Notes under the pieces: model-generated
Seen by the model: only the letters and a program-made list of their open reading frames with translations
The model's database searches: none
What the model was told of the DNA's origin: nothing
Shown here: one piece after another, positions 4,336 through 27,776 of the stretch
Layout: every line of letters starts with the position of its first letter
How positions within the stretch are numbered: the stretch's first letter is position 1
Assembly (NCBI GenBank): GCA_008632985.1
Contig: QPGO01000363.1
Span: 1 to 39,018 of the forward strand
DNA: 39,018 nt
Direction of reading: 5' to 3'
DNA from: Psammoneis japonica
Lineage: Eukaryota
Program-made: the position numbers and the translations under genes

Positions 4336-4746
4336 AATCTTAGAAATGATATGAACCAAAAGTCTCGCTTTGATGTTGGAGCTTAGTTGCCGGAGAGAGC
4401 TTGTGCACCAGCTAGTAATCGCGCTGATACTGATTTATCACTGTTGAGTTGCAATGACGGCTATTTTAAATACCATGTGTCGTTAGTAGGTTATGAAAGT
4501 ACCTACAAAGGGCTAGTAGAGTGTGCTACAGTACGACTATTGTAGAATGTAGCCCTCTCTAGGGCTGCATCGGCAACCATATGGTAACTACATAGAGCCC
4601 CTTAGAATAACGAACGATCATGATAATATTGTACTATACTTTCCGCTCGAAGCTAACTAATAACATATATCCCCTCGACGCTAATCGAGACTCACTAACG
4701 TCTCAATTCCATTCTCTCCCACCTAATGTCTGATGGTTCCGGGTGC

Positions 4747-5955: not shown

Positions 5956-6059
5956 TGAAGTTCGAAGAAAGTTTCGCGATGGTTATTTTGGCGCAGTTGG
6001 TGCTCCTATCGAGCTTAGATGATCGTGCTATTCCACGCAGCTAGCACATTAATTCTAGA

Positions 6060-8450
6060 GCGCCAGGCTGTCTCTGAGAGGTTTGACTCTGCTCACCACT
6101 TTCCTCTCCTGACTTACAAAGCAGCATTTGGAGCAGGAGTGAAGAGGTTTTCTGTGGTTTTGCAAGCAAGAGCTGATCCATTCTTCACTGACAGAGGCCA
6201 AGAAAAATCGGCTGGGGCACGCTCAGCTTGTGCCTTCCAACTGTGCTGGTGGTGGCTTCAGGGAGGATGCAGTCCTGCACTTGCATCAGTCTTGTTGAAA
6301 GCTCATGCATTTGATGACACTTGTGAGATCTATGAGTTTGATGGAGTGGTGCCAAATTGTGAGTTGTTTGAGGCATGTTTGACGTGCGCTCTCTCTCAGC
6401 GCACGGTGCCTCAAGAAAGTTCTTTGAGGCCACTTCGGTGCTGCAGGTCCTTCATGTGGCTGCAACATCAGGACTGACAGTTGCAACCATTGCAAGGAAG
6501 GAAGAGTGCACTTGTCTGGTCAGGAAATGGAGCACTGTGCATCCAGAACAAATTCTTTCCTTGTTGGGCAACACCCCCCCTTCTTGTGCGCCCGACGACT
6601 TTTTTCATCACCTTCAACCAGGAGAGTGCNAGGTCATTTGTGTGGATGAGAAGGTGATGAGTTGCTGAGGCAGATGCCAGAGGATCTTGGTGTGGATGCT
6701 GAGAATCTTAGCCATCTTGTCTGTTCTGCTGCGAGTTCATTTTGTTGCCAAGGACAAAAGGTGTCATGTGCAGTTGTCTCAAAGCTGCTGAATCATTTGC
6801 ATTGAATGCAACAGGGATCATCTTTCATGACCCATGGCATGGTTTGAAGAAAGAAGAGCACTGCTCAGCATGGCATGCTCCCATCCATGAGTTGCACAGA
6901 TGTCACATCATCCACAGCATGGTCGCTCTCTCAACGCTCCTGACCATGCCAGAGGACTCAGGGGAATGCAGCACCAAAGGAAACAATGCAACCTGTGCCA
7001 CTCAAGCACTCTTCATCCAGTGTGGCATTGTTGCACATTTTTTGAGTCTTTCCCTTGCCCTTGCACACATGTCATCCACAGCAGGTTGGTTGAGTGAAGA
7101 CAAACTCAAGCACAATTCAGGACCGGAACAGTCTGCGTGCCTTTTGGGGGTGGTCTGGCCCTTGCTTGCACAGGGATTCCCAAGCATTGGACAGCTGTGA
7201 CATCAAAACACTTGATGCATTGAGGGACTGCACAGTGGAAATTGTTGGTTTGTGCATGTTGCAAGCTGAAATGTGCAAAAAAGCACCCAAATTGTTGCAG
7301 GACAAGGAGTTCGTAAAGGCACATGTCAACACAATGGGGAGGGATGCGCTGCCAGGCAACACACTGCTGACTGCAAAGAGCTCTGCAATTTGCCAAATCA
7401 TCGGACAGAAAAAGTGAAGAGGAAGAAGCATCCTTGAGTGCTCATGAAGCACATGCACTGGGCCTTGGGTGACTTTCTTGTGGTTGGAGACAGTGACTGG
7501 TGGATGCAAGGCAGAGGAAGAACAAGTCTTGCACTTGGAGACTGGGTGTGAGCAGCACACGATTGGCCATTCACTTGCAGAGAAGCGATCATGGCATTCA
7601 GCCAATTGCACTGGGAAACCAGTCAAGACTTGTTGATTGCATCCTTGGGTTTTGTGGAGTTTGTTGTGGCTGTGCAAAAAGGCCTTGTCCTCCCTCAAAC
7701 AAAGTCTTTCCAAGCTTGAAATCCATCAACCCCAATTGCCTGACAGTGAGAAGGTGTGGCGCTCACACATGAAAAGATTGGCGCCCTTTCCAAGGCCACA
7801 GGGCACAGTCAGAAAGCAGAAACTGCCTTTCAAGAAGCTCTGTGGATTTGCAAGCTGGTGCACGGCAAAGATCATGAGCTGGAAGGGGCTGTTTTGCATG
7901 AGCTCAGTGACTTCTTGGCAGATGACATGGGTGATTGTGATCAGGCAATGAGATGCCAAGCTGTGGCACTTGGTGTTCCTTGCAAGAGCTTGGGGCTGGC
8001 TTGTGAGGACATTGCAGCCACTCTTTGCACAGCATGGGATTCATGCTGCACATTCAAGATGAGCCAGAACAAGCTTCACAATGCTTTGAAGAGGCTTTGA
8101 ACATTCAGAAACTACGACTTGGCAAAGACTCCAAGGAGGTTGGTGACACGCTGAACATGATGGGCTTCCTGCTGGCAAGGCGTGGAGAAATGGATGATGT
8201 GAACTCATTGCTTTGGGATGCTCTGAGAATCCAGAAGCACCAAGAAGATCTCATTAAAGTGTGCGAGACTCTCAAGAACATCAGAAACGTGCACAGAGAG
8301 AAGCGCAAACATGATTTTAATGCCTTGTGCTGTGAAGAATGTCTCCACATTCGAAGAACCGAGTTGGGTGATGGTCACGAGAAGGTTGTAGATGCATGGG
8401 TTGCAATCGGCAACATTGGCAGTGACACGGAAGAGACGGAACCCGCAATG
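6060..8450. other. TpA-erased (hypermutated) domain
   Basis: TA is nearly absent and CG is strongly reduced between ~6060 and ~8450, with TA returning gradually over 8450-8750. There is one N at 6630. Confidence 0.9.
6880..7200 (+). pseudogene. Fragment of a 7TM/GPCR-like receptor gene, TA-erased
   Basis: ALSTLLTMPEDSG...KGNNATCATQALFIQCGIVAHFLSLSLALAHM..GWLSEDKLK resembles the 'GN.ATC..QG.FIQ.G...Y..SL..YY....W.E..L' pattern of the expanded diatom GPCR-like family. Tyr positions read as His or Cys. Confidence 0.4.
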
Positions 8451-8741
8451 CAAGAAGCGTGCAAGGAGGCGCTTACGATTCGAACCATGGTTTGTGGTCG
8501 AAACGACGACAAGGTTGCTGCCGTACTTCAACACATGGGAACCATGGAGTTTCGATCGGGTGACTTTGACAGCGCACAACGCTGTTTGGAAGAATTTGTG
8601 CGCATTCGCCGTGAGAATCATCAAGCCGAAAAGCACGTAGCTCGAGTTCGTGGAAAGCCATGCCAGGATTGCAAAGTGTGCTTTGTGATAACACCCAATT
8701 ATCAGGTGCATCTTACGTTGACTAGAGACTGCCCCATTTAG
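7570..8741 (+). pseudogene. TPR-repeat (kinesin light chain/nephrocystin-3-like) protein, frameshifted, 5' part TA-erased
   Basis: Repeating ~42-aa units: FQEALWICKLVHGKDHELEGAVLHEL, FEEALNIQKLRLGKDSKEVGDTLNMMG, EECLHIRRTELGDGHEKVVDAWVAIG, KEALTIRTMVCGRNDDKVAAVLQHMG. Confidence 0.8.
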
Positions 8742-8931
8742 TCTAAAAGAATGTTATCCCGCACAATCTTCTCTAACATTTGTATAGTCAACGTCAGCAG
8801 ACAGAAGTCTATGACTAAGAGTCTTCCCACATTTCAGCGTCGTGTCAATCTCGGCAACACAGAAGTGCGCGCTGTCGTTGACTTGGACACCGACATGAAG
8901 ACGTGTTGGGCCCCCCTTGCGTTCAACAAAT

Positions 8932-9336
8932 TCAATTACCGTCGCCATCCATTGCAGTATCTGGTGCGCAGCCATCAGCGCTGTCCATCGTCAACGGCGC
9001 AGCATCAACGCCAGTCATCATTCCGACGACCTGCTTGAGACATTCCATGTTCCGCTCCTTGTGTTGGTCGTTGATCTGTTGGATACCTTTTCGATTGCCG
9101 CTGATGCAGGTTTCCAACGCCTGGTTATTCTTGTCCTGCGTGTCGGCCAATGCCTGCTTCATTGCCTGGCTGTTCTTAGCCTGCGTGTCCTTTCGAGCTT
9201 CATCATTTGCAGATGACAAAGCAGCGGCAAGAGTGTTGGTTTGTTGGGTGTTATTTCCCATCATTCTTTCCATCATATCAAACAAATGCTCATTCCGATG
9301 GCGTTGGGGTGTCTCTCCGGTGCCAGTAGCGTGCAT
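8932..9336 (-). pseudogene. Truncated 134-aa derivative of the 872-aa RCC1-repeat gene
   Basis: MHA is joined in frame to TGTGETPQRHRNEHLF...DTAMDGD, matching the 30622..33240 protein. The C-terminal domain is lost. Confidence 0.85.
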
Positions 9337-9554
9337 GATTTGAATAAAGAGCCGATAAACCGCGGAGCGAGTGGTCGTTGTTACTGTAGCCCTACCGGTA
9401 TTGTTTGAGTGTTGCTGTGAGCGCGGAGGGGGGGGATTGTGCGACGGTGGATGGCTTGAACCTCATGCGTAGATTCTACGCAGAAAATGTACTGAAAAAA
9501 TGATGCATTCTCACTCGCAAAACTTTATGTGTGTATACGTTCTGAATAAATACA

Positions 9555-9705
9555 TTGCGATGTTTTCGTCACGCGAAATTAATGAATGTGTTCGGTCTTT
9601 AATAACACATTGCGATGTTTTCGTCACGAAAAACGATGTTTTCGTCACGCGATAATCAATGAATGTATCCCTGCTTTAAGTACACATTGCGATGTTTTCG
9701 TCACG
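9555..9705. repeat. Four copies of (TTG)CGATGTTTTCGTCACG
   Basis: Copies at 9555, 9610, 9634 and 9687. A near-identical array lies at 33430-33580. Confidence 0.95.
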
Positions 9706-10611
9706 GATTCAATATATACAGTTTGCATACTACGAAATGCTAATCAATTGGGCGACTCCGTTCGCGCAGCCGCCAATCACGTAGAACCACGTAGAATTTG
9801 TACCAAATGCCGTTGCACGTTCCTTTTTTTCTCCCCTCCACCTCCGATCAGTGGTGCTTTGTACCGTACCGTACGAGTCGAGTAAGTAAGAAGCAATTGA
9901 TCAGTACACAGCATGGAGATCGAAATGGGTATTTCAACCTTTGCTTCCAAGCAGCATGCTGAATTCATGGCGGCATCCAAGGCACGGTATTCCATAAATT
10001 TGTGGTGCACGAGGGTAAGGCAAAAAGAAATATGATGTTTATGGAAAAGAAGTAATCCCACTTGAAATGTGTGCATGTTATCCTTGGTTGACATTAACGG
10101 AAACATGGCTCGCCTTGATTCACTTGCAGTGTTGAGCGACGAGGAGAATGGCCAGAAAGTTGAGGGCAACAACACGATCATAGAGGATACTGAATTGCAC
10201 CAAAAAAACGCAAAGTAAAGAGTGAAAAGTCTTCTCAAACTACCGTAGTAGTCAAGACGATTACGCATCAAAACCTGCGCCAACAGATAGAAAGAGGGTG
10301 CGATATCTCAGTTGACCGAATGGGTCGGCCAATATGTTGCTGAAAAGGTTGTTGCAATGCTACTTAATTTTGGAAGAATGCAGTAGCGAGGGACGAGGAA
10401 ATGATGGTAAAGCTATGGAGAAAAATGTCACATTGCCACCAATTACAGAGAAAACAGTTCGACCCGACTTTTTCGAGTTTGTCCTATCCAAAGAGAACGC
10501 AGATACGAGCATGGCGATCAAGGAAATCTGCGTTTGGCGTGGGTTTCGCATTCTCTGCCGACGAACGATTATATTTATCTGACCGATTTTTTTTTTCTTT
10601 TTTATCCTCCA

Positions 10612-11208
10612 GTTTTTCATAGGCGGCTCGTAAGAACAAAGATAAGCAGTGCAGTTCCACCAGACTGTGCTCCCAAATCTAAGCCTCTGATTTTTGATGA
10701 GGACATGACTTTCAATGTCGACCCGAACCGTGATGTAGAGTACGTACGAGGAGAAGTCATCGGATTCTGTGAGGTTACAGAGCGACAGTTTGGACTAGGG
10801 GAACCGTATGATTCTGAAAATGGACGTGGAAAAGCCGTGGTCAAGAGCGCTCGCAAGAGTGGTATCGGTTCTAATCTTGTAGATGCATGTGAGAATGCTG
10901 TGATCGAATGGGACGAAAACTGTTCACGTAGATACAATGAGATTATTCTGGAAGTGGAAGCAGCTATTCCCAAGGCGCTGGATTTCGATGAAAAAAGAGG
11001 GTACAAATCAGTGTTTGACAATCCGGCAAGCCGAAGATTTGATACGAGCGGATTTGTCTTGCGTCGTGTACAGTGTAACAAGATTTGCATGCGCAAGACA
11101 CTCGATTTTCGTCGTGCCCTAAAGGAGAATGAAAAAGACAAAGCAACCCTCGGCGACTTGGGGAAGAATATATTTGGAAAGCTTAACATGTTTCAAAGCC
11201 GCAGCTAG
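10612..11208 (+). pseudogene. GNAT-family N-acetyltransferase, probably with an internal deletion
   Basis: GEVIGFCEV...AVVKSARKSGIGSNLVDACE...EIILEVEAAIPKALDFDEKRGY contains the acetyl-CoA motif A (RxxGxG) and the C-terminal 'A..FY.KRGY' motif. The expected '...xNL' strand before AVVK seems to be missing. A polypyrimidine tract ending in CAG (to ~10612) precedes it. Confidence 0.75.
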
Positions 11209-11373: not shown

Positions 11374-12400
11374 TTAAGCTTTGTATTCCTCTTCGTCTGA
11401 AATCTCTAAATTGAGCAAGGCTTGTTCAAACGCTGCATCATCCAGCTCTTCTAGCTTCTTCTTATCCGCCGAGACACTTGCCACTTTCTCGTTTAGAAGA
11501 CTTGTTATGTCCAGAGCTGCAAGCTGTTGCTCAAACAAAACGTCTTGGATATGCTTACAGATCTCCGGTGGTAGTGGCACTGGCGCCCCGCGGAACTGCA
11601 TCATTCGGCACTCGAGGATCATGACAAGACTGGACACACGATTTGCTCTGCAGATCAACCGTCCACAAAATGTTGTTGCTCTTGTGTGCACGGCCTGTCC
11701 GCTCACACCATCGATCACGGCACATTTTGATGGGTGATGGACTTGGGACTGTCAGCATTGTCACTGTCGTTGCATGTGCTCTCATCCAGAGACCAAACCT
11801 GAATGGCGCCCTCGACACCACCACGAGTTCCAAGTTTGTGAAGAACGAAATCATCTGGCAAGGGAAAAGGTGAATTTTCGACTCCAGATGAAGACACAAA
11901 GCTCCTGCTTTTGGCTTTTGATTTGCTGGGATGCGACGAGCCATGTTGAAGCAGCTCGGCTTCAGCATCCTGCTGTTGTAAAATTGGAAAGTCCATCAGA
12001 GCACCAAGAGCAAAACATGAGATGTTTCAGCCTTCACCTCTCACTTTTTGTTTCACACGAATCCAACAATCGCTCCACGCAACTTGCCACATCTTCTTTT
12101 GCCAACCTCTCCAACGCGTCGCCATTGTCAAGATTGGCATTCTTTAATTTCCACTTCATGTCAGGGACGTAAAAGCACGTGTTGTCAAAACCATCAGGAA
12201 ATGGAAATTGGTTGCCAGACCCCACTCTCAGTGAGGCAAATGCTGGCTTTCCAAATTTCAATGAACCAAGCAACCGTGCTGAAAGAGTCATCGCTTTCGT
12301 GCACAGATGCCCAAATCAATGAAGCAAGTCTTTTGCTGAGTTCTTGGAGGTGTGACAAGCAAGTGAAGGAACTCAACATGTTGCACAGTGGACCTGGATT
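11374..12400 (-). pseudogene. PRIMPOL: PrimPol (primase-polymerase) C-terminal half, frameshifted and largely TA-erased
   Basis: KTCFIDLGICARKR..(F)RLLGSLKFGK compares with PrimPol FVDLGVYTRNRNFRL..SSK.GK. The UL52-type zinc finger RWCERTGRAHKSNNILWTVDL..KSCVQSCHDP(E)CRMMQFRGAPVPLP compares with RWCENIGRAHKSNNIM..VDL....YQKCHDP.C. Confidence 0.85.
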
Positions 12401-12595
12401 TGATTGCTGCTGCTCTGCAGGACAGAGCCAGGGTTGGCGCCAACGATGCTCCAGTGTGCAGCCTGCTCAGCAAAAAATTGGTCTTTGACAGCCAGGAGTG
12501 GCCCTTCATCAAGCCACTCAATTGGGCCATGTAGGAGGGGAGTGGATGCCAGGGGCTTTCTTTCCTCTTGTCATGACCCTGAAGAGGCTGGCCAA

Positions 12596-12830
12596 GCTGC
12601 CCCGCAAAAGAACTCCGGAAAACCAAATTTACGCAGAAGGAGTGCGCCAGGGCCCCAGCAGAAATGCCAAATGAGTCCGGAGTGTCCAGAAACTGCGTAG
12701 AATCCATCGTAGAATCAGCGCCAGGGATGTCAAAAAATCACAAAATTCCGGACTTGTTTGGCAGTTCCACTGGGGCCCTGGCACTTCTTCTGCATAAATT
12801 TGGTTTTCCGGAGTTCTTTTGCGGGGTGGC
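12596..12830. repeat. Foldback/MITE-like inverted repeat (~85-bp arms, ~65-bp spacer)
   Basis: 12596-12681 (gctgccccgcaaaagaactccggaaaaccaaatttacgcagaagg...gtccgga) is the reverse complement of 12747-12830, with mostly transition differences and a small indel. Confidence 0.9.
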
Positions 12831-15800
12831 AAGGTGCAGCTGCCACTCAGAAGAGCTGCACACATGCCGAGAATGCTGCCATGACATGCGCTGGATGTGC
12901 TCACTTTGCTCTTGACTGACAAGTCCTCCACCACCTCCTGAAAGCAAAAGACAAACTCCATGATCTTGGAGAGCCAGCGCAGCTGGCTGAGACCAAGCAA
13001 GTTGCAGACTTCCTCAAATGAACATCTGACCCACAACATCAAGTCATCAGGAAGCAGCTGGCCAAAGGGATGCATTTGCTCTTGGTTGGCTTTTCATGTG
13101 CAGCTGTCTGTGGCCCTTGTGCTGCAGGGAACTCAACTGTGAACTCTCCAGTCATGGATCTGACTTTTTCTGTGGGCTGGTTGCAATCCCCAGCATTGTT
13201 CTCTGCCTGGTTCAACAACAACAAAATGAAACTGCAACACTTGCTTTCAATGCATGTGAGAAGCACAGCAGCATGTTTCCTTCATTGTCATGAGACCTGC
13301 TGCCCCTCTGCTTTTCTCACTGCAGTCATTCTGGACAATGTGGCCATTGGTTGACACTGCCTGGAAAGTTTGATGGTTCCCTTTCCCATGCCTTTGTGTT
13401 GTCCTTGAATTTCCCAATGCAAAAATCCTCCACAACCTTGCTTTTGACAGACCAACACACGAGGGGAAAGGATCAGCAAAATTGCTCCACAGTGGACAAG
13501 AGGCAGGTTCAACATTTCCACATTGGCATGAAAGGCATGAAATGCTGAGATTGAGAACAAAAACCAAAGAAAATCAAGACACAAAAGGGGGCACAGAGAA
13601 GCCAATTTGAATGTGGACATTGCCGCCTGTGCAGCAAGAGGACAAAACCAGCCTTGTGCAATGTCTCCTTTGCAACTCTTGGTTGACAGTCAAAGGGAAA
13701 AAAACACAAGCCATCCAGAGTCCAGAAAAACATCATTTTTGGAACTCCACAAGTCCATGCCTGTTCTCAAATCTCCAGCACCTGGGGATTGCTTGACAAG
13801 CTGATGCTTGTCATGACTGCCGCCAATGCAAGTCACATGACTCTGGATCAAACAAAGAGCTGTGTCATCCTGGATGACCCTTTTCTCCGCTGCAATGTGC
13901 GGAAGAACACAGCAGACATGCTCTGTGGCCACCTGGGCAATTGACAATTTCAGCCATCATGGTTCTGAGTGATGCTTTTGCCCACTGCCACAATTCCTTC
14001 AGTTTTGCACACAACACATCAAGCCCACTTCATGCAACTGAGATTGACACATTTGAGTGCTGTCTGAAACAAAGCTGCTTCAAGTGTTGATGAAAACTGA
14101 AAACCCAAATGAGCTGAAATGAGCCATTGTCCAGCAGCTTTGGATGGAGCAATGTCTTGCAACTTGCAACTTGAGTTGCTCTCTGATCTTCTGTCATGAA
14201 TCTGTGGCACAGGTTGCTTCTGTCCACATCTCTTCCTCATCTTGTTGCTTCAGTCTTGAAATGCGGGCATGGCAGTTGTCACCAATTGCTGGACAACGAC
14301 AATTTTGTTCCACGTTCTGGACTCAGCAGGAGCAACACCTGTGCAGCTGTCTTTTCTTCTGGTGGTTTGGCACTGTGTGTTGCAGTTTGGACAGCAAACA
14401 GCAGATTGCAACTCTCACAACCAATGGTGGAGCATTCCTGTGCAACATTTTTCTGGGGGCAAACAGCAAGTTTTTTCTCGATGGCACACTGCAGCATTGG
14501 CACACTTTCTTTCCTTTGTTGAAACATGTGGCATTTTTGGTTGAAACCAGCCCATGACATCTTGTTTTCCACTTGCAAACATGTGGTGGGCCCCCTAAAA
14601 AGAAACCCCACGTCAGTGCTTGACCAACCAGCGTGAACATCTGGGGGCAACTCCACCCACACTGCCACTTTTGACATGTCGCTCTCAACGAGTGCATGAT
14701 GTGCCTTTTTGTGCACTTTGGTCATGGAGGCATTTGCGACCTTTGATTGGGTGGAGACAACAACAGCAAAAAGGCATGAGAAGCACAGCAATGTGAGTGA
14801 AAGCATCCAAAGGAAAAAGTTGAGCGGCACAACCGCTGTGCCACATGTTTCTGATGTGACTTGGAAAGATGCTGTGCAGTTGAGTTGCTCACCCACATGG
14901 CCCCTCCATGCAGACTCTGGCTCGTGGCATGCAGTGGTGCATGCCATGCACCAGTGCTCACGTCATCAGCACAGGCACTCACATGGCCTTGGCACTCAGT
15001 GCAGGCAGCAAGCAGCGGGTGCTCGCACAGCATCAGCAATCAGCAAGCAAGCAAGCACATGGCAGCACCGTTGCTCACATCATCAGCACAGGCACTTGCA
15101 CAGCATGGCGCAGGCACTTGCTTGTTGCGTGTGATGCAATCGCTGGCAGCCAATGGAGTTTTTTCTGTGCAACCATGATGAACGCGCAATGATTCTGACA
15201 GCAACAAGTTGGTTTGTTCTCAACAGTGCATTGTGGAACTGCCATGTGTTCTTTTTTTCATTGAAGCACGCAACCTTTTTGGTTGAAAACAGTGCGAACA
15301 TCTTTTCATCGGCTTGCAAACATGAACCACCCAAACATGAGATCCAGGAAGAAAAAAGGATGCAGGCAGGGAGACCACGACACAAAAGCCTTTTCTGGCT
15401 TTATGAAAAACATCATGAGTTTGTGTCTCAGTTTCCACACAGACATTTGTTTGAGGCTCTTGTGAAGGAACAATCTGCCAGAGATGAGTGCATCACAGAG
15501 AAAGAGATTGCCATCCAAGAAAACAAGCAAAAAAGATCCTCGCATTTCTTCAAGCTGTTGTCTTGAAAACAGTTGGAGATGCCGGAAAGGTGATGCCCAG
15601 CTCCAGTGGACTGTTGCAGTCCAAGTCGAGAAACGGTCCCACTGCAAGTGACAATGCTGTTGATGTCAAAATGAAAGACACCAGTGACATTGACACATCC
15701 TGGGGCACTGGCTCAACAACAATGGAGGTTAGAGGGGGCTGGCAACACATTGAATGGAAGTGCTTCCTGTGCTGTCACCACCTTCAAAACTGAGCCGTTG

Positions 15801-17049
15801 TGCAGTGTTCCCTCTGCATGTCATGATGGCAACAATCAAAAAGGCAGTTTGCATGAAAACAAGACTGAGCACTCAAATGCCATCATTGAGTCAGACGAAG
15901 GGCCATCCAGTGGTGTTTTGGAACTGTCTTTGTACATTCTGTCGATGTGCAGTGCAAAAAAGCAACACTGGTGCATTCCAAAAAAGAGATTTGGCAAAAA
16001 CCAGCTCAAAAATCTGTTGTTGTTCCTCTTGAAATCAACGTGAATTGTTTGTTTGTGCTGTTGCCCACTTCACCCCCAAGTTGCCTGCTGTCTGGCATTT
16101 GCCTTTTGTGTGTTGCGCGACACTGTGATCTTGGGTTGGCTGAACATTGTGGTGCACAACTGACAACCGTGAAGATGCCGAGCACGCATTTTTCACAGAT
16201 CAGCAGTTGATCTCTGCATCTCAACCATGGAGGCTAAAAGGTGAAGCACAAAGAGAAGGAAGGCTTTTCAAGACACGTCTTTGTCATCAAGTGATGAATC
16301 AGAGAGTGGCTCATCTCAGATCACAAAGAGGAAGATGGCCAAGGCCAAGAAAGACAACCCGGCTGATTCCGCATTTAATTTCCAGTTTGCACCTGTGATT
16401 CTTCAATTTTCCAGTCACTGGAAAGAAGAAAGTTTCATTCAATGACAACTTCTTGGAGGGGAAAGTGACAATTGGTCCTGATGATGATTGGACCGCATTG
16501 CACTCAGCCGCAAAGGGTTTGACAATGGAAGAGAAGCTTGAGGCACTGCAAACAAAAGAGAAGAGAGAGCCAATCCCATGTCTCTTGAATTTGAGCTGGT
16601 TGAAGCACTCATTGTGGGGGAAGGTGACATTGTGTGTGGCAGTGACAAGTGTGAAGCAGGTGGGGAAAATTGGGGAAACATTGGTCAGTCGCACAATGTC
16701 AACAGCTCTGGCACGTGCATCATGCTGCGCTCCATCTGTCAAACATTGTGGCAGGCTGTCTGTCAGCCATTGTGCCAGGTGCACCACACTGCATTCTGTC
16801 CATTGACCATTGCAGCAAGTGCAACAAACTCTGTTCTAATCTGCTGGAAACATTGCAAATTTAAGTTAGAGACGGTGCCTCTTGCTTGCCGCCACGGCAA
16901 GCACATGCCTCCATTGCCTCGTGTGCTCTGAGATTGGGCCCTGGTCTTTGCAGCTCGGTTTCCTTCTCAAAAGAGGCCGCTGAAGGGCAATGCTTGCAAC
17001 TGGGGACCTGACAATGACAGCAAGTTGAGCGAGCCATTTTGGGAGTGAT

Positions 17050-17960
17050 GCTGTCAAGAGCGCCAAGGTTGTGCTCAACCCACCTTGTGCTCCCATGTCA
17101 CTTCAAGCATTTTTTGCAGTGACCAGACATGATCATTTCAGTGGGATTCAAGCCAGGGCAGTGTGGGGAAATGAAGACAAAAGTGGCTTTCTTTTCTTCA
17201 ATGATGTCCATGATGCACTGTGAGTGGTGAGTTGATGCATTGTTGAGCACAACAACGGACCTTGGCTCCCAGTGCAAGGAGCCAGTTTCTCTTTGAACCA
17301 AAGCTCAAATTGCTCCTGACAAACTTTTCCAATGAGTGGGTTGCTCTCTTCATCTCTTGCATTGCCCTGAGGAACAATGTCGCAGGCCTCCTTTGTGAAT
17401 CCTTTGATGTCACAAGCTGCAAGCAATGAATGCCAAGCCCATTTGTTGATCTCAAAGGATGTTGATCGAACAGGAGTTGCACCTCGTCAAGACCACCAGC
17501 ACCATCGTCTTGATGAATTTTGATCTTTGTGTGACTCATCCAAGTGTGACAGCATTTCAGGTCAACAAGCTGCAGCCTTCAATGCTTGGAGATGCGACTG
17601 CATTTCTTTCTTGTCCATTTCCATGGCCTTGTTTGTCACAACGTGAAGGGAGCATCACACTTCCTTTCTAAGTTTCTCATGCATCTGGGCTGGGCTCCAT
17701 TTCTTGTGAGCAACCTGGTTCATTTGGATCACTGGCTCATCCAGATGAAGCTGGGCTCTTGACCAACAATGTTCCTCACAGGATGTGGTGCCCCCCTCAG
17801 TCCACAAATGTTGCTTGTGTCCAGTGTGAGATCTGGCCATCCATTTGTCAGTTTCTGCTGGAGTCTCACCACAGAGAAGACAGTGATCAAAACATCATTG
17901 ACATGTCAAAGAATCATGGGTGCTCCTTGGCAGATGGAGATCAGACATGTTCCAGCCACA
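17050..17960 (-). mobile_element. Degenerate IS630/Tc1-mariner (DDE_3) transposase
   Basis: Across frames: ..HLDESHKDQNSSRR.., LLAACDIKGF, QFELWFKEKLAP, EPRSVVVLNNASTHH (cf. VVVLDNASIH), and FISPHCPGLNPTEM (cf. PPYSPDLNPIE). The sequence has stops, frameshifts and Tyr-to-His/Cys changes. Confidence 0.85.
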
Positions 17961-18914
17961 CGCGAACCAAATTGTGCACGAAAACAACACATTCGCACAA
18001 GTTTTGCGTGGTCCCCAACTTGCTGCAATCAAGCTTTCACCACCACCAAAAGCACAGATTTGTCCAAATGTAAAATGTCTCGCAACACTGACAAGACTTG
18101 CATGAGTGTTGCAGCATCATTGTTTTTGTGCAATGTGTGTTTTTCATTGCAACAAAAGAATCCCAACACAATGGATGATTTTTGGCAAAATTGTTGCCGT
18201 CACTTTGATGTTGTCACAAACAATTTTTTCTGCGATGCTTGCTCTCTGGCATGAGCTCCAGTGCAAATCTCTGTGTGCAATGCACTGACGTGCAATCCAC
18301 ATTGAGTCCACTGAGGGAGTTTGTGATGCATGTCCCAGGAGGACCATGAAATCAAGAAATGCTGTTTGTTTGTTCCAAATGCCTCTTTCCCCCAACATTG
18401 CCCGCTGTCTGACAACAGCCTTTTGTGTCTCAAACAACATCGTGCACTTGGTGTTGTTGAAAATGATGGCCCACAAACAACATTCAGTGACCTGCCAAGC
18501 ATGGATTTTCTTCTCTCTGGCAGTCATCGGCCAAGCAAAAGAGCAACCTAAATGGACTGTGTTTTGTTGAACTGGCCAATTCATTGCCACAAAGATCAAC
18601 CCTGCTCTGCACAGGTGTGGTTGCCGAGGTTTTCAGCAGGCAATCATTTCATCAATTCTTGTTGGCCTTGGGTGAAAATGCCGTCCGCGTCTGAGCTGGT
18701 GCTAAAACTCAGTGCTCAAACCCATGTCAGCAAGCGAGTGATCAACAGCTGGAGTGTGCTGGCTGCAGCGCAACTTCAGAGTGCAGCCACAGGGCTGCAA
18801 CCATGTGGTGACTGCATGGAGACCTTTGTAGAATGGCAAACAACCATGATGACATTGCACTGCACTTTCTGCCCAAAGCCAGCCAATGACATGAATCCCC
18901 TTGATGATGCCAAT

Positions 18915-20140
18915 CAAGACTCACTTGTGTCTTGACAACATTCTCTCCCACCTGACATCCAATGCCTCCAGGTGCTCAAACAATGGTTCAAAAGGCAAGC
19001 ACCTGATTTGTTTCAAAGCTGTGACCCAACTTCCAGTGGCAGGTTTGGGCACCTCAGCAGCATTCTTGGGTTCTTCCCAGGGCTTCAAAACTGGCAGAGA
19101 ATCTTGAAGAATGTCCATCAAATGCATTGACATGCCAAACACTTTCTTTCTCCAACATTTGGCCTTCCACTCAATTGCAGAGTGGCAGTCAGACAGAATT
19201 GGGTCCAGAAACAACAAAACCTTTTCAAAAACCATGCTCGCCTGAGTCTTTGCTGGTGCAGTCAAGCGTGCCGACAACTTCAAAACTCTCTCCCCCCAAT
19301 GTCCAACACTCGATTCCATCTCAGAGAGATGGTTGGACAAGATTGGGTTCCGAAAAACAGCAAAAAATTGTTGTGTTCCTGCAGAACAGGTGCCTGAGTC
19401 TCTGGGTTTGCATGATGACGTTGTTCAAAATTGCATCTGGAAGTTTCCGCCAAAGCTGAAATGCTTCTGACTTGATGTCTGAGAAAAGCTGCTGTGTGCA
19501 CCCAACAAGAAGGCAAACTGGATCTCCAAAAATGTTGTGAGCGCATCTTGGAACGGGGCTGACTTGGTCTCAACCATGCTTTTGGGAGCAGTGTTGTGAA
19601 AGAGTTGCTGGAGGCTGTCGTTGGAGTCGCCATTGCAGTCCTGAACAAAATGTTCATGGACACAACACTTGTTGGTGTCTTCTGCTGGTGCAATCGTTGG
19701 CATGGCATTGCTCAGGAGGTCTTGGGCATGACTCGGAGACATGTTGCCATCATCAAAATGAGCCCAAAAGCTGGAAATGATGATGGCATTTTTGAAGGGG
19801 ACAGTGCTGGGAGCAGCATCGCTGATGATGGCATGGCAGCAGCTGGAGGCAGTGTCAACATCTGAGCATCTGTCGTCCAAAAACTTGTGTGGTTGCCTTG
19901 GTCAACAAGGTGCTGATGCAGCACTTTGTCGCATGAACAAACAAGGCAGAGAGAGGGTCAATGATTGCACCAGCACTCATGGCGGCAATGATGGCAAGGA
20001 CAAAGTTCATGATTTCTTTCATGATGGACTGTGAGCTGATGAGCAGTTCAGAAATTGTGAGAGCACTCGAGGCGCCGTGGCACAAGACACATGAAATCCA
20101 TGTGGCGCGGGCCATTTCCCCATTGCGCTGAAGTTCAAAG
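18915..20140 (-). pseudogene. Hypermutated copy of the 4747..5955 gene and its flanks
   Basis: Collinear with ~4690-5975 (e.g. LQDSLPVLKPWEEP, MNFVLAIIAAMSAGAII). TA is systematically replaced by TG/CA and many CG by TG/CA, and there are frameshifts. Confidence 0.95.
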
Positions 20141-21049
20141 AAAGGTTGTCACACACACGACACACACACACTCACAAAATTGACAACGTTTTTGGCACAG
20201 TTGGCGTGTGCATCAAGTTCAGCCAATTGTGCTGCTTCAAGTTTCATGCTCCAATTTCCAATCCGCTGCCGCCATGTTGGCTGCACCACTGACAGCAGGG
20301 CTGCTTGCTGTTTGCTGTTTGCTGTCACTCAAATTGCAGAAGAAACCATGTTTGATGTTTTTTGAACCTTTTGGTGGGCTGCAATGACACACTGCTGTGC
20401 TGCCTCAATCCCAGTTTTTTCTGTTGTGGAGGCTGCACTGTTGCTGGTTGAGAAAAGTCATTGCACTTGTGGGGCACTCACTGACACCCACCAATGGTGC
20501 AATTTTCACACTTGTTGCTGGTTTGAGGGCAACAAGTTTGCTTCATGGGCCTCAGTTTGCCACCAGCAACAAATGTCATGATGTCACACAAGCCCAAAAT
20601 GCCATTTCTGGTTCAACCTGCAATGCACACACAAGTGGCAACTTGTGTTTGAATTGAGATGTGGCCGTTGCACCATGGTCACATTGTCCCCCTTTTTTGG
20701 CTGCAAGGCTGCAATGCAACAAGACAACACAGTGCAGCACAGCTGCAGCAATTGCCAGCCACAGCTCAGCACTGTTGCAGGTTGGGGGGAATGACTTGGA
20801 CAGCCATCAATGTTGTGCATGTTTGCAGCAGGTTTTGGGGGGACATGAGTGCATGCTCACATTCAGAGGACAAAGGAGACAGCTGGCTCAGGAGAATGTG
20901 CGCTGAATGTTGCTGGCATGACAGGGGGAGCAACATCATCTGGGATGCCAACAATCTGGGTCTGACTGTCTGCCACAATCTGGGTGTTTCTTGACTTTAA
21001 TGCCAGCGTGTTGTCAACTTGTGAGCCAATTCTCTCCTTAAATGTAACA

Positions 21050-21445
21050 GACGTGTTCCAGCTCTAGGTGGGACCTCGTACTGCTGAACTGTGACATGAT
21101 TATTTTTTATCATCCGTCGTATGTTTCGCACGTACATATCTACGTGTTCTATTATAAAAAACTGTTCCACACTGCCTGTTTTGCGAAGCCAAAGGCTTTC
21201 TGTTATCTGCACTTATGTCAATAAAAATGCGCTGGGTATATTCTTTAATGTCTAAAGAATATACCCGGGCATACTGTAAAGAATGTACTTCAAGTGTGGA
21301 GGAGGAGATACGTTCGCAAAATTGCCTCTTTTTCTGTTGGCGATCATTCATATATCCATTGCTTAATAATTTTACTACGGAGCTCGCACGTAGAATTCTA
21401 CGGGCCCAATGTCACAAAAAGTCCCACCTAGGACTGGAACCCGTC
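21050..21445. mobile_element. Unmutated AT-rich island with terminal inverted repeats and a central hairpin (MITE-like)
   Basis: 21055-21074 (gttccagctctaggtgggac) and 21421-21440 (gtcccacctaggactggaac) match 18/20 as inverted repeats. A perfect 14-bp-arm hairpin lies at 21234-21266, close to the centre. TA content is normal. Confidence 0.55.
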
Positions 21446-21859
21446 AACATGAGAACTGCGCAAGTTTGTGAGCTTCTAAAACCCAAATCGCTTCTCACTT
21501 TTAAGTGCGATCATTCTTTTCACACAATGCTGACCTGCGCCCCAATTGACATTTGCGGTTTCTTGTTCTTTGAACACAAATGTTGCTGCTTGTAATCCAC
21601 CCTCCTTTTCCACCAACTCGTCCCACATTTTGTCTCTTTGCTGTGTCGTTTTCAAATCCAAACCCCCAATTGCCACACGTTCTTGCATCCAAACCGCATT
21701 GCAGAATGTTTTTTTTTATTTTCGCTTGTCTGGATTTTGTTGCTTGTTTCAAATTACGTTTGCACACCAGTTTGGTTGGTGGCCATTGCGGCATTTGCTG
21801 CCGCTCCGTTGCCTGCAGCCACCACCTGCAATGGTGGGTCCTCTCCCATCGGCGCCACC

Positions 21860-22882
21860 CACCCTTCCTCTCTCTCCTTTTTTCCTCTCTTTTGCGTTTC
21901 TTGTTTTCCTCCTGAGACAAGTTTGTCTTTTCTCTCGCCTTCTCTCCTTGAACCATGCACAGAATCCCTGGTTGTTCTCTCTGTCTTTCACCACCCACTG
22001 GCACAGATCATTGCACTTCTTGATCCCCTCCTTGCTCCATCCTTGGTTCCTCTTTGCCGACTCCCCCACCACCTGCGCTGTGCACTTTGCAGGAGCAGCG
22101 TCTTTCACAGTTGGCTTTCTTCTCCTTGCAACATTTTCTTCCTTTTCCAATTTCTCTGCCATGTCCTTCACCTTGTTGCAGTGGTTCAAGTGCACTGGCA
22201 GAGCAAACGCCTCTGACAAAATGGAAAGCCACTTCTGAAGCATGTTGGTTGTGCTTCCACCAAACTGCGCTTGTCCCACCACTGTTGGCACCACAGTTTC
22301 CAAGAACCATGCGTGTGTGTCCTTGTCATTTCTTCCCTTTGTCAAATCTTTGCAACCCACCAGCGATCCCTCTAAAGCAGCAACTGCACAGACAAAAGCA
22401 AAGGAAGTGACACTCATCCCATCAGACAATCGCCTCCAACACAATCAATGGCACGCACACATCTGCTCACCTGTCATTCTCCTCCCAATGTTGTCCTGCA
22501 CATTGCTCCTCTTTCAGTTGAGTTTGGTCCTGAGCACCTCTTTGCATTCTTCCCAGAACGCCTCCGGTGAAGACGCCATGCTCCTCAACTCCTGCAGAAC
22601 CAATTTCATGCAATCTCCTCCTGCGGCGAGTTCATGATCGAAGATTGTGAACTTGTGACATGGCCAAACACTCTCATTGATGACCTTTGTCAACATCAAT
22701 GCCATCAATTTCTTGCCCACCGCCGGTGCACGATCCAACACAAGACATCCCTCTGTGGGAGTCACCACCGAACTTGAATCCCCACCTGCGCATTGGAATC
22801 TGTTCAATTCCCCATGTTCGTTTCTTTGTGCGTGCAACAAGGCCGCCACCGCAGGACTCATGGTGACTTCATGTGACACCAC
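21860..22882 (-). pseudogene. Transposon-associated conserved hypothetical gene (possibly intron-containing), TA-erased
   Basis: VWPCHKF...EAFWEECKEVLRTKLN*KRSNV, then HAWFLETVVPTVVG...LSEAFAL..LN...AKCT....RNQGWSKEGIKKCNDLCQWVVKDR. This matches the 'SDEAFALL..EN..KYT..GWS.EG...FN.L...V..DR' pattern I associate with accessory ORFs of diatom DNA transposons (from memory). Confidence 0.45.
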
Positions 22883-24464
22883 ACAGACAAACCCAATTCT
22901 GTTGGTTCATCAGCAACTCTTTGTCATGTCCTTTCTCAACCTCACTTGCCGCTGGAAGTTGCGCTTCCTCCCTCCGTCACTCCTGTGAGAACCGTGTCCT
23001 CCATCTTTTTTGCCTTCCCAGTGGCCTCCTCTCATTTGGAACTTCCGTCCTTTCCTGTCACTTTGTGAAAGGCAAGCCAAGAAATGAGTGCACTTTGCAT
23101 GTGATTTTCTCGGTTTTGTCGTTGCTCGCATGTCCTCTCTCGATTCAAACAGGTCTTTGCATCATTTTTGAGTGCTCATTCCCAACCCCATGTTTGAATT
23201 TCTGTCAACGTTCCACTGTTTTGAATTGTGCACCTTTGTCAGCCAATCCAATGCACCAATGAAGATTGCAACATCATTCAAATCAATGTCAAACAATGTG
23301 TTGTGTCTCCTCACATTGATGCGTGCATTGCGCCTGCTTCCTGATGCAACATCTGTTTCATTTGGTTTGTCAAGTCGTGTCAAACCTCCCATTTGTTTGT
23401 GCAAATCCATGTCGCTCATTGTCTCATGTCAATTTGTCCCTGTCTTGGTGGGTCATTCTCTCCACTTCCCTGACACCACATCTCTCCAATTGCTCTCTCT
23501 GTCACCCAAATTGTCCAATCCACTTTCAATGGCTGCCAAAGAGGGGTGTCATTGTCACTGAGATGTGGTTGTTGTGAGTCGTTCCCGTCACAGGAACGTG
23601 GGTTCCTTCTGTTGCAATCACATGCCGCCAATTGATGATCAAATTGGTCGTTTTGCTGGTGGTGGTGTGGTGGAATCACATGGTGGTGCGGCAAGCTTTG
23701 CCTTCTTTGCCAAGGTTGTTTGTAACCCCACTCTCCTTGCGGCCCAAATTCGAAGCCCTTTTAATTTCTTCGACGTTGGTGGTGGTGTTGGCGGTTTTGC
23801 AATTGCCTGTCGTTTGCTTGTTCCTGCCTGCAATGCCTGCAGCATCGAGTTCCACCGCCCCCATCATGATTTGGGCTCTCAGTGATGTGATGCCATCTGG
23901 CATGACCACACCAGTCGCTGTCCTGCCCTGATCAATCAGGACTTCCTCTCTGAAGATGATGCTGTGCATCGGTTGCACCGTCTGAACAACTTAAAGATTT
24001 TCTTCAACAACTGCAATGGGCGAATGCTTTTTGACAACAATGCGACACAGAACCAACTCGAGGAGACACTGTCCAACGAGTGTCCTGAAGGTGCCATCGT
24101 TGTTTCACTGGACATGATGTTTTGTGTGCACACCCACAAATGGAGGCATGAAGCATTCTTTGTTCCTGCCTGTCCAGACGATCTGTCATGGGGAGGTGGT
24201 GTCGACAGGCACCTGCTTCACAAGCACACCAAGAAAAGAGACGATGCCGTGGAGCCAAGGCATTCCACCAGGAATGACCCAGGGTCTGTCATCAAACAAA
24301 AATTCAAGCCTGCCAAAAGTGGGTGACTTTTCAATTCCCCTTTGTTCACAATGCAACTTTCTTCTGTGTGAGCAATGCATTGTTGATTGGCCCTTTGCAC
24401 AAACCCACTTTTTGCCTGCACCAACTTGCTGCTTCGCTGGTTTCGCATTCCAACAACTGCTTGT

Positions 24465-25100
24465 TCACATGCTTGCCATGTCAAAATTGTGGACTGGACA
24501 TGCCATGTTCCTTCGATCCAAATTTGTTTTGTCAGGCAAAGCTCGGTGCAACATTCTTGCATCAAAAACAAATGCAGTGCCTGCTTCTCCAACCAGCAAT
24601 TGCCCCTCCAAACCCAGCCTGACCAGCTGTCTTTCGCGTTCCTTCTCATTCAATGTCACCTCACAACCATCCGGCCATGTCTCAACTGCACCATTGTGAT
24701 CCGTTGTGTCATCGAGGAACAGAAACATGGTGAAAATTTTGTTGCCAGGCAACAATTTTGTTTCCATGAAATCATGATGAATTTCCCCCTTTGACCAGAA
24801 GTTTGATCTTGAACTTGAAGCAGGAGCATTTGCTGCTGTGTGCCGGGACATCTTTCTGCAAAATCACCTGCCAGGGGAAAGCCAGGAATCAACTCCAACA
24901 TTTTTTCTGCCAACTCAACACCTTCCGCCTTGTCCTTTTTGTCAATGGCAAACTCACCCACAAAGCGGTGTCCTTCCTTCTCTCGCTTGCCACTTGGTGC
25001 CTTGTTTGCCAGCGTTGTTGTCTGGTTGAGCAGGGGTTGTGGTGATTTGAATTTTTGCAAGCAGCCTTTTTTTCCTTCCTGGTGCACTCTTTCTTTGGAC
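24465..25100 (-). pseudogene. 2-oxoglutarate/Fe(II) dioxygenase (PhyH-like), frameshifted and TA-erased
   Basis: GEIHHD (HxD)...FTMFLFLDDTTDHNGAVETWPDG...LVGEAGTAFVFDARMLHRALPDKTNLDR (distal His, then Arg). This is the canonical PhyH-family DSBH motif order. Confidence 0.7.
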
Positions 25101-25659
25101 CCAGCTGTCTCACTCTTTACGACATGAGATTTCATCTCGCCCAGTTGTGCCAGCAACTTGCCATGTTTCTGACATGACGTTGTCAGCCAACGGGCAAATT
25201 TCCAGCACCCGCCAACAGAACACTTCCACGCCATTCTCTGAAAATGCCTGTTCCACCAAATCAAATGGTGCCTGGTCTTTTTTTTTAAGTGGAACAGACC
25301 CAATTCAGCGAAAGTCTGCATCCATCACTGTGCAACGAAAACGGCTTTCTTGCTGAACATGTGTTGCCAATGGCAGTCCATCTGTCGGGTGCACCACAGA
25401 TGCTTTTTTCATAAATGGTCCCATGTGACATGATCTTCATTGATCCTGTTTGCTGCATGATCTCATCAAATGGGTCATCCTGGCCATCTCAAAAGCGTGG
25501 AAAACAATTTTGTTGCACACTGTCTTGCCAGTGTTGTTGTGAGACATTTTCATGTCGCCACCGCGGCAGACACAAAGGAACAGCTGCCATCCACCATTCA
25601 TTCCGCACCACAAACAAACTCTTTTGGAAGAATGTGTGTGATGAACAATTGCAAATGAC

Positions 25660-25860
25660 AGGTGTCACTTTTTTGTCAACACACCCATCTGTCAACAGAG
25701 CAATTTGGCATCACTTTTTCATTGTTGCAACCATGTGTCGACAAAGTAATTTGGTGTCACTTTTCTGTTGTTGCACACACATGTCAACAGAAGAATTTGG
25801 TGTCAGTTTTTTGTCAATGCGTGCATCTGTTAACACACACCTTTGGCATCACTTTTTTGT
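25660..25860. repeat. Degenerate ~44-bp tandem array (tgtc.ac.a...aatttgg(CA/TG)tcactttt)
   Basis: About five units contain ggtgtcactttt or ttggcatcactttt and tgtcaacag/tgtcgacaa at roughly 43-46 bp spacing. Confidence 0.75.
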
Positions 25861-25879
25861 TCACACACTTGACACCAGC

Positions 25880-27005
25880 CTGCACATTGTCATGACATTG
25901 AGCACATCTCCCGCAGCAAACCACACTCTCCCGAATCTTGTCCAAGTCGCTGATCAACTCATGTTGAGCAGCGAACAGATGACGTTTGGGCAACTCCATC
26001 TCTTGTCCTCCGCAGCCTTGTCATTCTCTGCTGGGTGAGTGGACTGGAGGCACATTGAAATCCTCATCGGGTGCGATGTCACGCGGCGGGCCAAGAGGGT
26101 TGTGTTGATCGAGGGAGGAAACAGGCTCTTCTGTCAGAAGGGAAATTGAAGGGGACCCACAACTGCCATCGCAACGGCGGCTCCAATGAACTCAGGAACT
26201 TCTGCAGGACTGTCCTCTCCAAAGGCAGACACACCATCATCTGCAAACAAAACAAATCGGCAGGCGTTTTGGGAGGCTGCACTGGCGGCAGCAACGTTGG
26301 CGGCTGAGCGCAATTGACCAGAGCATCTGACGGAGGGTGGGCACAGCCCATTTCCAGCAGAGGGAGGACAAGCTGGAGAAGAGCTGTCCGTTGGTGTGGG
26401 AGGAGATGGAGCTGGATTCCAAAGGACTTTGGGGAGGGGAGGAGGGGGTTCATCGTCAGAGAAACCAAACCAAGCAGGATCATCATGGTCATCCAGTGAT
26501 TCATCATGGTCGTCCAGTGATTCATTGTCTGGAGGGGGAAGTGCATTGGCGGCAGCAGAAGATGCGGCATGCAGGCGAAGGGACATTTCCTCCTTTTCAT
26601 GGCAGGGCAAGCACTTCTGTAGATGAAGGGTGATGTTGGAAAAGGGGACATGGCAATGGGGGCATTTGGGTTTGTTGGTGTTGGATCCAAGGGAGCCAAC
26701 GGAGGCGGAATCCAGAGGATGAGAGGAAAGAGATGTTCCGCCGGATGAAGAAGACAATTGGGCTGTGCGGCGCAACTGTGTCAATGGGGGATGGAGACCA
26801 GATGCTGCAGTGCAGTGCCAAGATGGGTGATGTTGCACATTGTTTTTGGAGTCAAATCCCCATGTTGTCCACAATGAGGACAACCAAAAGACTTGGTGAA
26901 AATGGCGGAACGGAGGCAGTTAGTTGCGATGTGCCTGCTGAGACCACGTTCGGAAAAGAAACCAGTTTGTTTGCACCATGGACAAACAAGACCATCAGAC
27001 GACAT
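25880..27005 (-). mobile_element. N-terminus of a probable Plavaka (CACTA-like) transposase: C2H2-type zinc fingers plus acidic linker, truncated before the catalytic core
   Basis: MSSDGLVCPWCKQTGFFSERGLSRHIATNC..GCPHC..; KCPHCHVPFSNITLHLQKCLPC; acidic DNESLDDHDESLDDHDD; then ELPKRHLFAAQHELISDLDKIR. This architecture is recalled from diatom Plavaka-type transposases. No catalytic domain is present, so the family call is inference. Confidence 0.4.
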
Positions 27006-27776
27006 GGCCGATGTGCAGAGACAAAGGAGTTGAGAAGAGAATCGAAAGGAAACAGCGTGTGCAGCAACAATCACTTGGGGACATGGTGAGGGCAGAAACA
27101 TGGAGAAACAACATGCAATCGACATGGAAGGCATCAAAGGATGGAATGGGCAGGGAGAGAAAATTGAGAAGACAATTTTGAATCTACATTGACGGACACA
27201 GGCGGCGATTTTGATCCAGAAAGTTGACCAACACACAATCCAGAAACCAAAACAGAACCAAATGTGCACACAAGGCTTGTCGGATGGGGGGGGCAAACAG
27301 TTAAATTGAGGAAAACAGATGTTTGTTGTTGAACATTTCAGAAAAGCTGACTTGACAAATCAGCACGATCTTGGATCAAAGGGAGTCAATGTCGGGTTTT
27401 GTTTCAAGAAATCTTGATGGCCAGTGCGACACCTGGATTGTTGGTGTCCCAGATGATTTCTGGTTTTGTTCACTGCACACAAAAAACTGGCAATGCCCAA
27501 AGCCACCAATGTCCCAAATGTTTTTGCTGGTGCAAGCCAGCAGTTGAAACTTTCAATTTGCCAGCAATGGCCATGTTGCAGGCAATCTTGCAGGCTGTGT
27601 TGTGTTGGGGGTTGGTTGGCAGCAACTCCAAGCTTCTTCAACAAAAACCACACAGGAAAGCAAACTCACAAAGGCACATTTTTGTGAAGTTTGCTCATTG
27701 ATGATGTGTGTGTGTTCAAGCAGCACAGAGCAATGGGAGGCAAGCATCGTGATGTGTGCACTTTGCAGCCCTGAGT

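Follow-up and report, generated by a model that had tools for sequence, protein, structure and literature searches.

The window analysed here is the whole 39,018-nucleotide stretch of contig QPGO01000363.1 from Psammoneis japonica (GenBank assembly GCA_008632985.1), and in long blocks of it TA steps have gone to TG or CA almost completely. The few TAs that remain, above all those of the block at 11573-20997, lie mostly in TARA or, on the other strand, TYTA (R, purine; Y, pyrimidine). This context, on either side of the step, lowers the TA mutation rate about 2.6-fold, and the flank rule is a graded rule of rate and not one of protection. The best reading of these data, in which our confidence stands at about the halfway mark, is a repeat-targeted editor that acts on the TpA step of duplex DNA, probably by adenine deamination, and that is hindered on both strands by an abutting purine run or short A-tract.

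Residual TAs in the erased blocks

With borders set by a hidden Markov model on TA occurrence, the window resolves into five TA-erased blocks (69 TAs in 23.7 kb) and four normal blocks (660 TAs in 15.3 kb) of similar GC content. In 500-base-pair (bp) bins of the erased blocks, the observed/expected ratio (o/e) is 0-0.18 for TA and 1.35-2.1 for TG/CA, while outside them TA o/e is 0.4-0.9. CG is also depleted in the erased blocks, with TG/CA in excess. The erased blocks, to which no strand applies, and the residual TAs of the focal block are as follows.

1-1138: TA-erased block; 3 of 3 residual TAs in TARA/TYTA
6116-8637: TA-erased block with a TPR gene remnant; 5 of 9 in TARA/TYTA, the exceptions mostly close to the right edge
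11573-20997: TA-erased, CG-depleted block; 20 of 22 in TARA/TYTA, 16 of these 20 in TARAW/WTYTA (W, A or T)
21503-29953: TA-erased block of multi-copy repeat DNA; 15 of 21 in TARA/TYTA
36861-39018: TA-erased block with inverted and tandem repeats; 12 of 14 in TARA/TYTA
Residual TAs of 11573-20997 in TARA/TYTA: 11979, 12145, 12170, 12630, 12698, 12710, 12795, 14596, 15402, 15730, 16235, 16376, 16837, 16862, 16867, 17669, 18071, 18549, 18703, 18829
Residual TAs of 11573-20997 outside TARA/TYTA: 12532, 15933
12600-12826, no strand: foldback element with a TTTA at 12630 and 12795, one in each arm

The focal block spans 9425 bp and contains 22 TAs and 161 CGs. An earlier note on this DNA had counted by eye 20 of about 22 residual TAs in TARA/TYTA, and the recount gives the same 20 of 22; the ten sites that it cited all read as it stated, the two exceptions included. 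Its estimate that chance would give roughly a quarter agrees with the 163 of 660 TAs (24.7%) found in this context in the normal blocks, against which the excess has a binomial p=1e-10. The bias that it described in the first and last blocks is present in both, and its foldback observation holds as well, since TTTA is kept in both arms while the adjoining CG has become TG in one. The two blocks that it did not cite show the excess in weaker form (20/30, p=1.5e-6), and pooling all five blocks gives 55/69. When 22 normal-block TAs were drawn 5000 times and scored against 225 degenerate two-base motifs, the best p never fell below 3.5e-6. The TARA/TYTA excess is real and highly significant. Clustering of survivors in the erased blocks is not significant (20 vs 14.3, p=0.12).

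Independent X1 contigs permitted a check at 13 of the 22 sites and confirm TA at 12 of them (11979, 12145, 12170, 18071 and eight of nine within 12802-17102). At the remaining site, 15402, the TTTA is a TG in a single-copy X1 contig; the slow TARA/TYTA class is thus still polymorphic. The differences listed against single-copy X1 contigs include just one TA/TG and one CA/TA change, and most of those across 11736-20936 are a CG in the window against TG or CA in X1 (10 sites). Two single-contig differences, at 17908 and 20460, run opposite to CG decay. These differences suggest that CpG decay is either still under way or biased between alleles.

Spectrum of mutation in paralog pairs

The direction of change was read from proxy ancestors within the window, namely an intact gene against its erased copy and two shorter pairs, for a total of 1612 aligned columns. 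The copies concerned are these.

4573-5974, minus strand: intact paralog taken as proxy ancestor, with a 411-amino-acid stop-to-stop frame at 4747-5982 and no Pfam match
18797-20147, minus strand: erased copy of the 4573-5974 gene, with a single residual TA at 18829 (TAGAA)
8433-9742, no strand: partly mutated copy leaving block 6116-8637, aligned to 30122-33617
30122-33617, no strand: less mutated counterpart of 8433-9742, taken as proxy ancestor from the paralog alignment

Transitions in these pairs are almost pure. Among 64 ancestral TAs, 33 became TG, 24 became CA, 5 changed otherwise and 2 were kept, both at a block edge; the 106 ancestral CGs of the same pairs gave 34 TG, 35 CA, 4 other changes and 33 kept. 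TA gains number 2 in the 1612 columns. Sorted by the preceding base, A-to-G changes hit AA at 15/262, GA at 20/233, CA at 9/198 and TA at 57/132. Outside TA the rate is lower (44/693) and favours a 3' pyrimidine (32/309 vs 12/384, p=1e-4). Of 18 As with a 5' neighbour that had turned into T, 16 also changed to G, which indicates that the process acts repeatedly.

The earlier note had set neutral drift and GC-biased conversion aside, and rightly so: within one and the same DNA, 62 of 64 TA sites are lost while CG decays in the opposite direction, to TG/CA. The simplest account of the CpG decay is deamination of methyl-CpG. The two processes are separable: TA loss fades over about 700 bases from block 6116-8637 into normal DNA along 8433-9742, where CG is largely kept.

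A graded flank rule

Survival was normalised to all TA, TG, CA and CG steps (YR steps) sharing the same flanks. The earlier note had proposed a specificity reaching two bases out, and the data bear this out beyond any effect of the first base: YTAR sites survive at 0.316 with TARA and at 0.064 without it, mixed sites at 0.169 and 0.021, and RTAY sites at 0.006. Simulated erasure yields a TARA share among survivors of 25-26% if blind to flanks and 36% if only the +1 base counts, against 80% observed. Decay of neighbouring bases was rejected as the cause of the motif, its simulation yielding just 25-26% TARA. The reach seems to extend to +3, where TARAW sites survive at 0.34 and TARAS (S, C or G) at 0.093; W follows TARA at 44 of 55 erased-block sites and 89 of 163 normal ones (p=8e-4), a comparison made post hoc.

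The effect is specific to TA and is absent for CG in the same DNA. With an RA flank, TA survives at 0.221 against 0.019 for the rest, whereas the CG values are 0.362 and 0.439; general regional shielding was discarded on the ground that CG survival is blind to flanks. Duplex stability was discarded too, as survival is highest for TTAA (0.39) and lowest for ATAT (0 of 339 steps) even though both are entirely A and T.

The word 'protected', which the earlier note had used of these sites, is too strong. In saturated pairs, 13 of 13 blastn-aligned ancestral TARA/TYTA sites have mutated and one further site (4603/18829) survived. Sister copies within 36861-39018 read TG at the TARA/TYTA positions 37809, 37867 and 38366. 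TARA sites are therefore lost too, on either strand. Fitted hits per site (model A) are 1.46-1.55 for the TARA class and 3.94-3.98 for other TAs, and saturation turns this roughly 2.6-fold lower rate into a roughly 12-fold higher survival (22% vs 2%). A rate difference of this size is enough, at saturation, to produce a striking motif.

A proposed duplex editor

An enzyme that reads only the bases 3' of its target adenine makes a clear prediction, which is that the outcome, TG or CA, follows the faster strand. The data do not bear this out. A joint fit to survivors and 76 directions gives a rate factor of 0.47 (95% 0.25-0.74) for an A followed by RA and of 0.40 (95% 0.25-0.61) for the opposite A; it rejects the 3'-only reader (p=3e-8) and does not reject a palindromic model (p=0.21). 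Rates per strand fitted to survivors place 45.8 of 63 events on the faster strand where 25 are seen (z=-6.1), and model D, also per strand, places 40.1 of 57 there where 32 are seen (z=-2.4). The exponent that links survival rates per strand with direction comes out at about 0 (95% -0.45 to 0.25). The A of the TARA strand was the one lost in 7 of 18 cases. Fitted values of g by base are 3.1 for A, 4.9 for C, 4.0 for G and 5.9 for T. A one-sided TARA thus slows both strands and a purely 3'-reading enzyme is rejected, a result that rests largely on one gene pair.

These observations suggest a mechanism in which the residual TAs would be the slowest class left by a near-saturated mutator of repeats that converts TpA to TpG or CpA. 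The editor may be recruited to silenced, CpG-methylated repeat domains and act there repeatedly, treating the double-stranded TpA step as a unit, as a duplex-binding or dimeric protein would. Most likely one of the two adenines would be deaminated to inosine and then copied as G. A purine run or short A-tract beside the step (TARAW/WTYTA) may hinder its opening or kinking and so slow the attack on both adenines, alternating R-TA-Y flanks would be fastest, and there may be an extra preference for C after the edited A. We infer the enzyme, its chemistry, its recruitment and the readout of shape from the pattern of mutations. Simulations described in the accessible part of PMC6511876 indicate that TpA conformation depends on hexamer context, which makes shape readout plausible; deformability of TA is described in the portion of PMC9146901 consulted, and the available text of PMC9998398 has DNMT5 methylating and silencing diatom transposons. 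The earlier note had offered an enzyme or a DNA-shape effect. Of these, the shape option is the better fit, and an enzyme of the TadA-like, 3'-only kind is rejected by the joint fit.

Several points weigh against this reading. The direct rate test is weak: in the partly mutated pair at 8433-9742, ancestral TARA/TYTA sites were kept in 10 cases and transitioned in 2, other TAs were kept in 24 and transitioned in 22, and another 4 sites show changes of other kinds (one-sided p=0.049, two-sided p=0.097). Near survivors the density of CG is higher (2.94 vs 2.29 per 100 bp, p=0.0045), which points to patchy exposure though the fits assume it to be uniform, and the fits take paralogs as ancestors, for which they are proxies. 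Adenines flanked by Y and by R were mutated 11:11 in the long gene pair and 12:5 in the other pairs, so that strand symmetry depends for the most part on a single gene pair. In CTAC/GTAG the mutated adenine was the one preceding C by 14:2. Both this ratio and the preference for a 3' pyrimidine outside TA are strand-specific features expected from a TadA-like enzyme. Survival at two-sided TYTARA sites (3 of an expected 15.3 sites) is no better than at one-sided ones (52/234), and this is predicted well by neither model. Finally, the sequence by itself cannot separate chemistry on A from chemistry on T, and no enzyme was found.

Alternative explanations

The most serious alternative, unlikely as we judge it, is a TadA/ADAT-like deaminase acting on transiently single-stranded repeat DNA, reading a 5' T and the bases on the 3' side (TAC and TAT fast, TARA slow) and treating the strands independently. 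It accounts for the 14:2 ratio, for the 3' pyrimidine preference outside TA and for the 12:5 split in the smaller pairs, and per-strand models describe survivor counts best when direction is ignored (Akaike information criterion 651-655 vs 678). Engineered TadA editors have a matching preference in the accessible text of PMC8989541, where a preceding T is preferred, a following C raises activity and a following A lowers it, and an ADAT2 candidate has been proposed by Mettrop et al. (bioRxiv 10.64898/2026.01.13.699255, as far as its available text goes). Such an enzyme, however, over-predicts events on the faster strand under both sets of per-strand rates given above as well as the number of two-sided survivors (10.3 vs 3, p=0.008), and its 3'-only form is the one that the joint fit rejects.

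Chemistry on thymine is improbable. Here a TET/JBP-type oxygenase would mark the T of TpA in repeats as 5-hydroxymethyluracil (5hmU) and then 5-formyluracil, mispairing with G would turn T to C, and the flank rule would be that of the oxygenase. 5-Formyluracil does mispair with G, and T to C on one strand is indistinguishable here from A to G on the other. TET/JBP homologs make 5hmU that is enriched in dinoflagellate repeats according to PMC11572971, but the accessible part of that article gives no TpA preference and has 0 occurrences of 'diatom'.

Quite improbable is a mutator that is blind to flanks beyond R-TA-Y, combined with a protein that binds over short, A/T-rich runs of purines and thereby shields TARAW. 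Shielding of this kind would explain the protection of both strands, the +3 footprint and the lack of any extra gain at two-sided sites. Against it, CG decay is not shielded at CG, TG and CA steps that have these flanks, though a protein of this kind could require the TA itself, and survival is graded over many contexts.

It is very improbable that the residual TAs are new, left by a flank-blind erasure after which context-specific C-to-T changes at CARA/TYTG re-created TARA. This would predict the direction-blind erasure that is observed, and one X1 difference, at 13565, makes TAAAG from CAAAG, although it is unpolarised. In the erased copies, however, none of the 88 RA-flanked steps other than TA turned into TA, where 3.2 would be expected if all survivors were gains (p=0.04). 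The TAGAA at 18829 of the erased copy aligns to a TA at 4603 of the intact copy and is hence a survivor and not a new TA, and in the partly mutated pair ancestral TARA was kept at 10/12 against 24/46 for other TAs.

Error-prone repair of the pol-eta type, triggered by T:G mismatches from methyl-CpG decay and making A to G, is scarcely plausible. CG decay does co-occur in the same blocks, and pol eta leaves WA hotspots after mismatch repair in somatic hypermutation (PMC6423074, in the part available), but a WA preference predicts AA above GA and CA, an order that the A-to-G counts by preceding base do not show. TA loss is also far more complete than CG loss (2/64 vs 33/106 kept), and almost every CG of 30122-30325 is retained where the TAs of that stretch are lost. 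The earlier note had named pol eta (SBS9-like) as a candidate for comparison, and it fits poorly, with AA not hit above GA. Its adenine-methyltransferase candidate fails as well: ApT is the target step of eukaryotic N6-methyladenine methylation, and here AT is not the target, being kept at 69/99 against 2/64 for TA.

The last alternative, sequencing or indel errors in homopolymers or selection of TAs as stop codons, is negligible: AAA or TTT lies within the hexamer of 37 of 69 survivors, but the 32 without such a run include 18 in TAGA/TCTA (74/571 in normal DNA, p=3e-8), so that homopolymer errors fail to explain the motif, the X1 contigs confirm all but one of the TAs that they cover, and frames that stop at a surviving TAR have no clear excess in length over frames that stop at TGA (median 29 vs 22 codons, p=0.064).

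Comparison with known systems

The closest parallel to the TA erasure is the hypermutation at TpA that Mettrop et al. describe for viral DNA integrated into the genome of Bigelowiella natans. In the text of that preprint as available, DNA that is foreign or silent undergoes transitions from A/T to G/C at TpA on either strand, which yield TpG or CpA, clusters are depleted in TpA and rich in CpA+TpG, and an adenine deaminase is proposed. The window likewise has TpA-focused transitions on both strands (57/64, to TG in 33 and CA in 24) within bounded foreign or repeated regions with CpA+TpG excess, as seen from the o/e values and contig depth. The same text gives a rate raised about 1000-fold per generation and on or off by line. 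It differs in describing a process caught in action in mutation-accumulation lines, on single-copy viral insertions that are still 3-9% TpA. The process in the window is near saturation, affects transposons and captured gene copies, is accompanied by CpG decay and has a flank rule. The main text of the preprint has 0 occurrences of 'flank', 'context', 'trinucleotide', 'CpG' or 'diatom', while its supplement may hold flank data. Literature searches, to which subscription papers were mostly inaccessible, returned no paper on TpA erasure in diatoms or on the flank rule, the B. natans preprint alone being relevant.

TadA-derived adenine base editors are engineered enzymes that work on a single displaced strand. 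Those described in the consulted part of PMC8989541 (ABE8e, ABE8.20-m) resemble the window process in making A to G with a 5' T preferred, a 3' C favourable and a 3' A unfavourable, but their 5' T preference amounts to 25-52% overall against near-exclusive targeting of TA here. Their flank ranking is found in the window data. Independence of the strands is not, by the joint fit, though the split is 11:11 in the gene pair and 12:5 elsewhere, and unlike these editors a one-sided flank slows both strands in the window.

Repeat-induced point mutation (RIP) of ascomycetes shares sharply bounded repeat domains, dinucleotide-specific transitions and hits on duplicated gene copies. RIP creates TpA, whereas in the window TpA is destroyed and hardly ever gained; RIP causes C to T, as stated by Mettrop et al. 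in the text available, and identity with RIP was rejected for its opposite polarity. RIP is triggered by homology between repeats and hits both copies; in the window, the paralogs at 4573-5974 and 30122-33617 are intact next to erased copies, and an element of very high copy number at 20998-21502 is unerased. Pol eta, in the accessible part of PMC6423074, is alike in its A-to-G changes at TA near deaminated cytosines and differs in that the window has no AA excess and almost pure transitions.

Other features of the window

The high-copy element lies between two erased blocks.

20998-21502, no strand: short very high-copy element, unerased, with terminal inverted repeats at 21050-21074 and 21421-21445

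It has an erased relative at 28216-28309, and X1 contigs run together over about 21040-21450 in the manner of empty sites. Its unerased state between two erased blocks suggests either a later arrival than the erasure or an escape from it. Contig depth is high across 21503-25500.

A Pfam search of 91 frames (16 + 75), taken from 104 long frames of the erased blocks together with normal-block genes, named no transposase in 11573-20997. At the left edge of that block, the minus-strand frame 11558-11995 matches Herpes_UL52 (E 3.5e-7, residues 91-128), a zinc-finger type also known from PrimPol-like primases. The erased minus-strand frames at 1-1141 presumably resemble a piggyBac-type transposase; they have no Pfam match, and 1-417, when used to scan metagenome contigs, turned up no relative. 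A TPR remnant (7750-8741, plus strand) and a 2OG-Fe(II) oxygenase remnant (24468-24863, minus strand) lie inside erased blocks, host genes of ordinary appearance being erased as well. Frames of the normal blocks match helicase-C, GNAT, RCC1-like and M17 peptidase families in Pfam. Repeats include four 46-bp tandem units at 25661-25857, a 21-bp unit in nested direct and inverted repeats at 38327-38644 and, in normal DNA, three spaced 59-bp repeats at 33876-34301. The window contains a single N, at 6630.

Relatives in other organisms

Protein searches with 10411-11205 and with 21752-22444 returned 0 hits, but for the minus-strand frame 21752-22444 HMMER finds 81 relatives. Compared with metagenome relatives the frame shows changes from Tyr to His or Cys, and conserved Tyr positions are also His or Cys in several public-data relatives (P0001, P0005, P0006, P0013). 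These replacements hint that the same scar may exist in other organisms. Two alignments (A2 and A3) contained no stretch of sufficient conservation for a search. A motif scan of metagenomes gave 32 loci, 5 of them encoding relatives of one repeat protein and the other 27 dropped as unrelated; none of the 5 relatives is TA-erased (TA o/e 0.60-0.97) or enriched in TARA (19-28%).

Significance

Erasure of TpA with a flank rule resembles, on the sequence evidence, a kind of genome editing that has barely been described, to which the rule would add a new element. In the literature searches made, TpA-specific hypermutation is otherwise represented by one 2026 preprint on one alga, whose main text, as available, gives no preference beyond the dinucleotide. 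A rule of about 2.6-fold over two to three bases on both strands offers a specification against which candidate enzymes could be assayed in vitro, for example on randomised NNNTANNN libraries. It separates editing by a single-strand TadA-like enzyme from editing of the duplex, and it can be compared with the 231 mutations that arose de novo in the Bigelowiella experiment. The rule may also provide a clock for repeat domains, with fast sites dating young copies and TARAW sites dating old ones.

A broader proposal is tentative, and we consider it possible but on balance doubtful. In it, a natural double-stranded DNA adenine editor would be guided to silenced repeats, recognise a roughly palindromic TpA site of at most 8 bp (fast at R-TA-Y, slow beside TARAW) and deaminate either strand. 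If true, such an editor would be of interest to the base-editing field; the same enzyme family may be at work in Bigelowiella, and the process could be a widespread eukaryotic defence with a polarity opposite to that of RIP.

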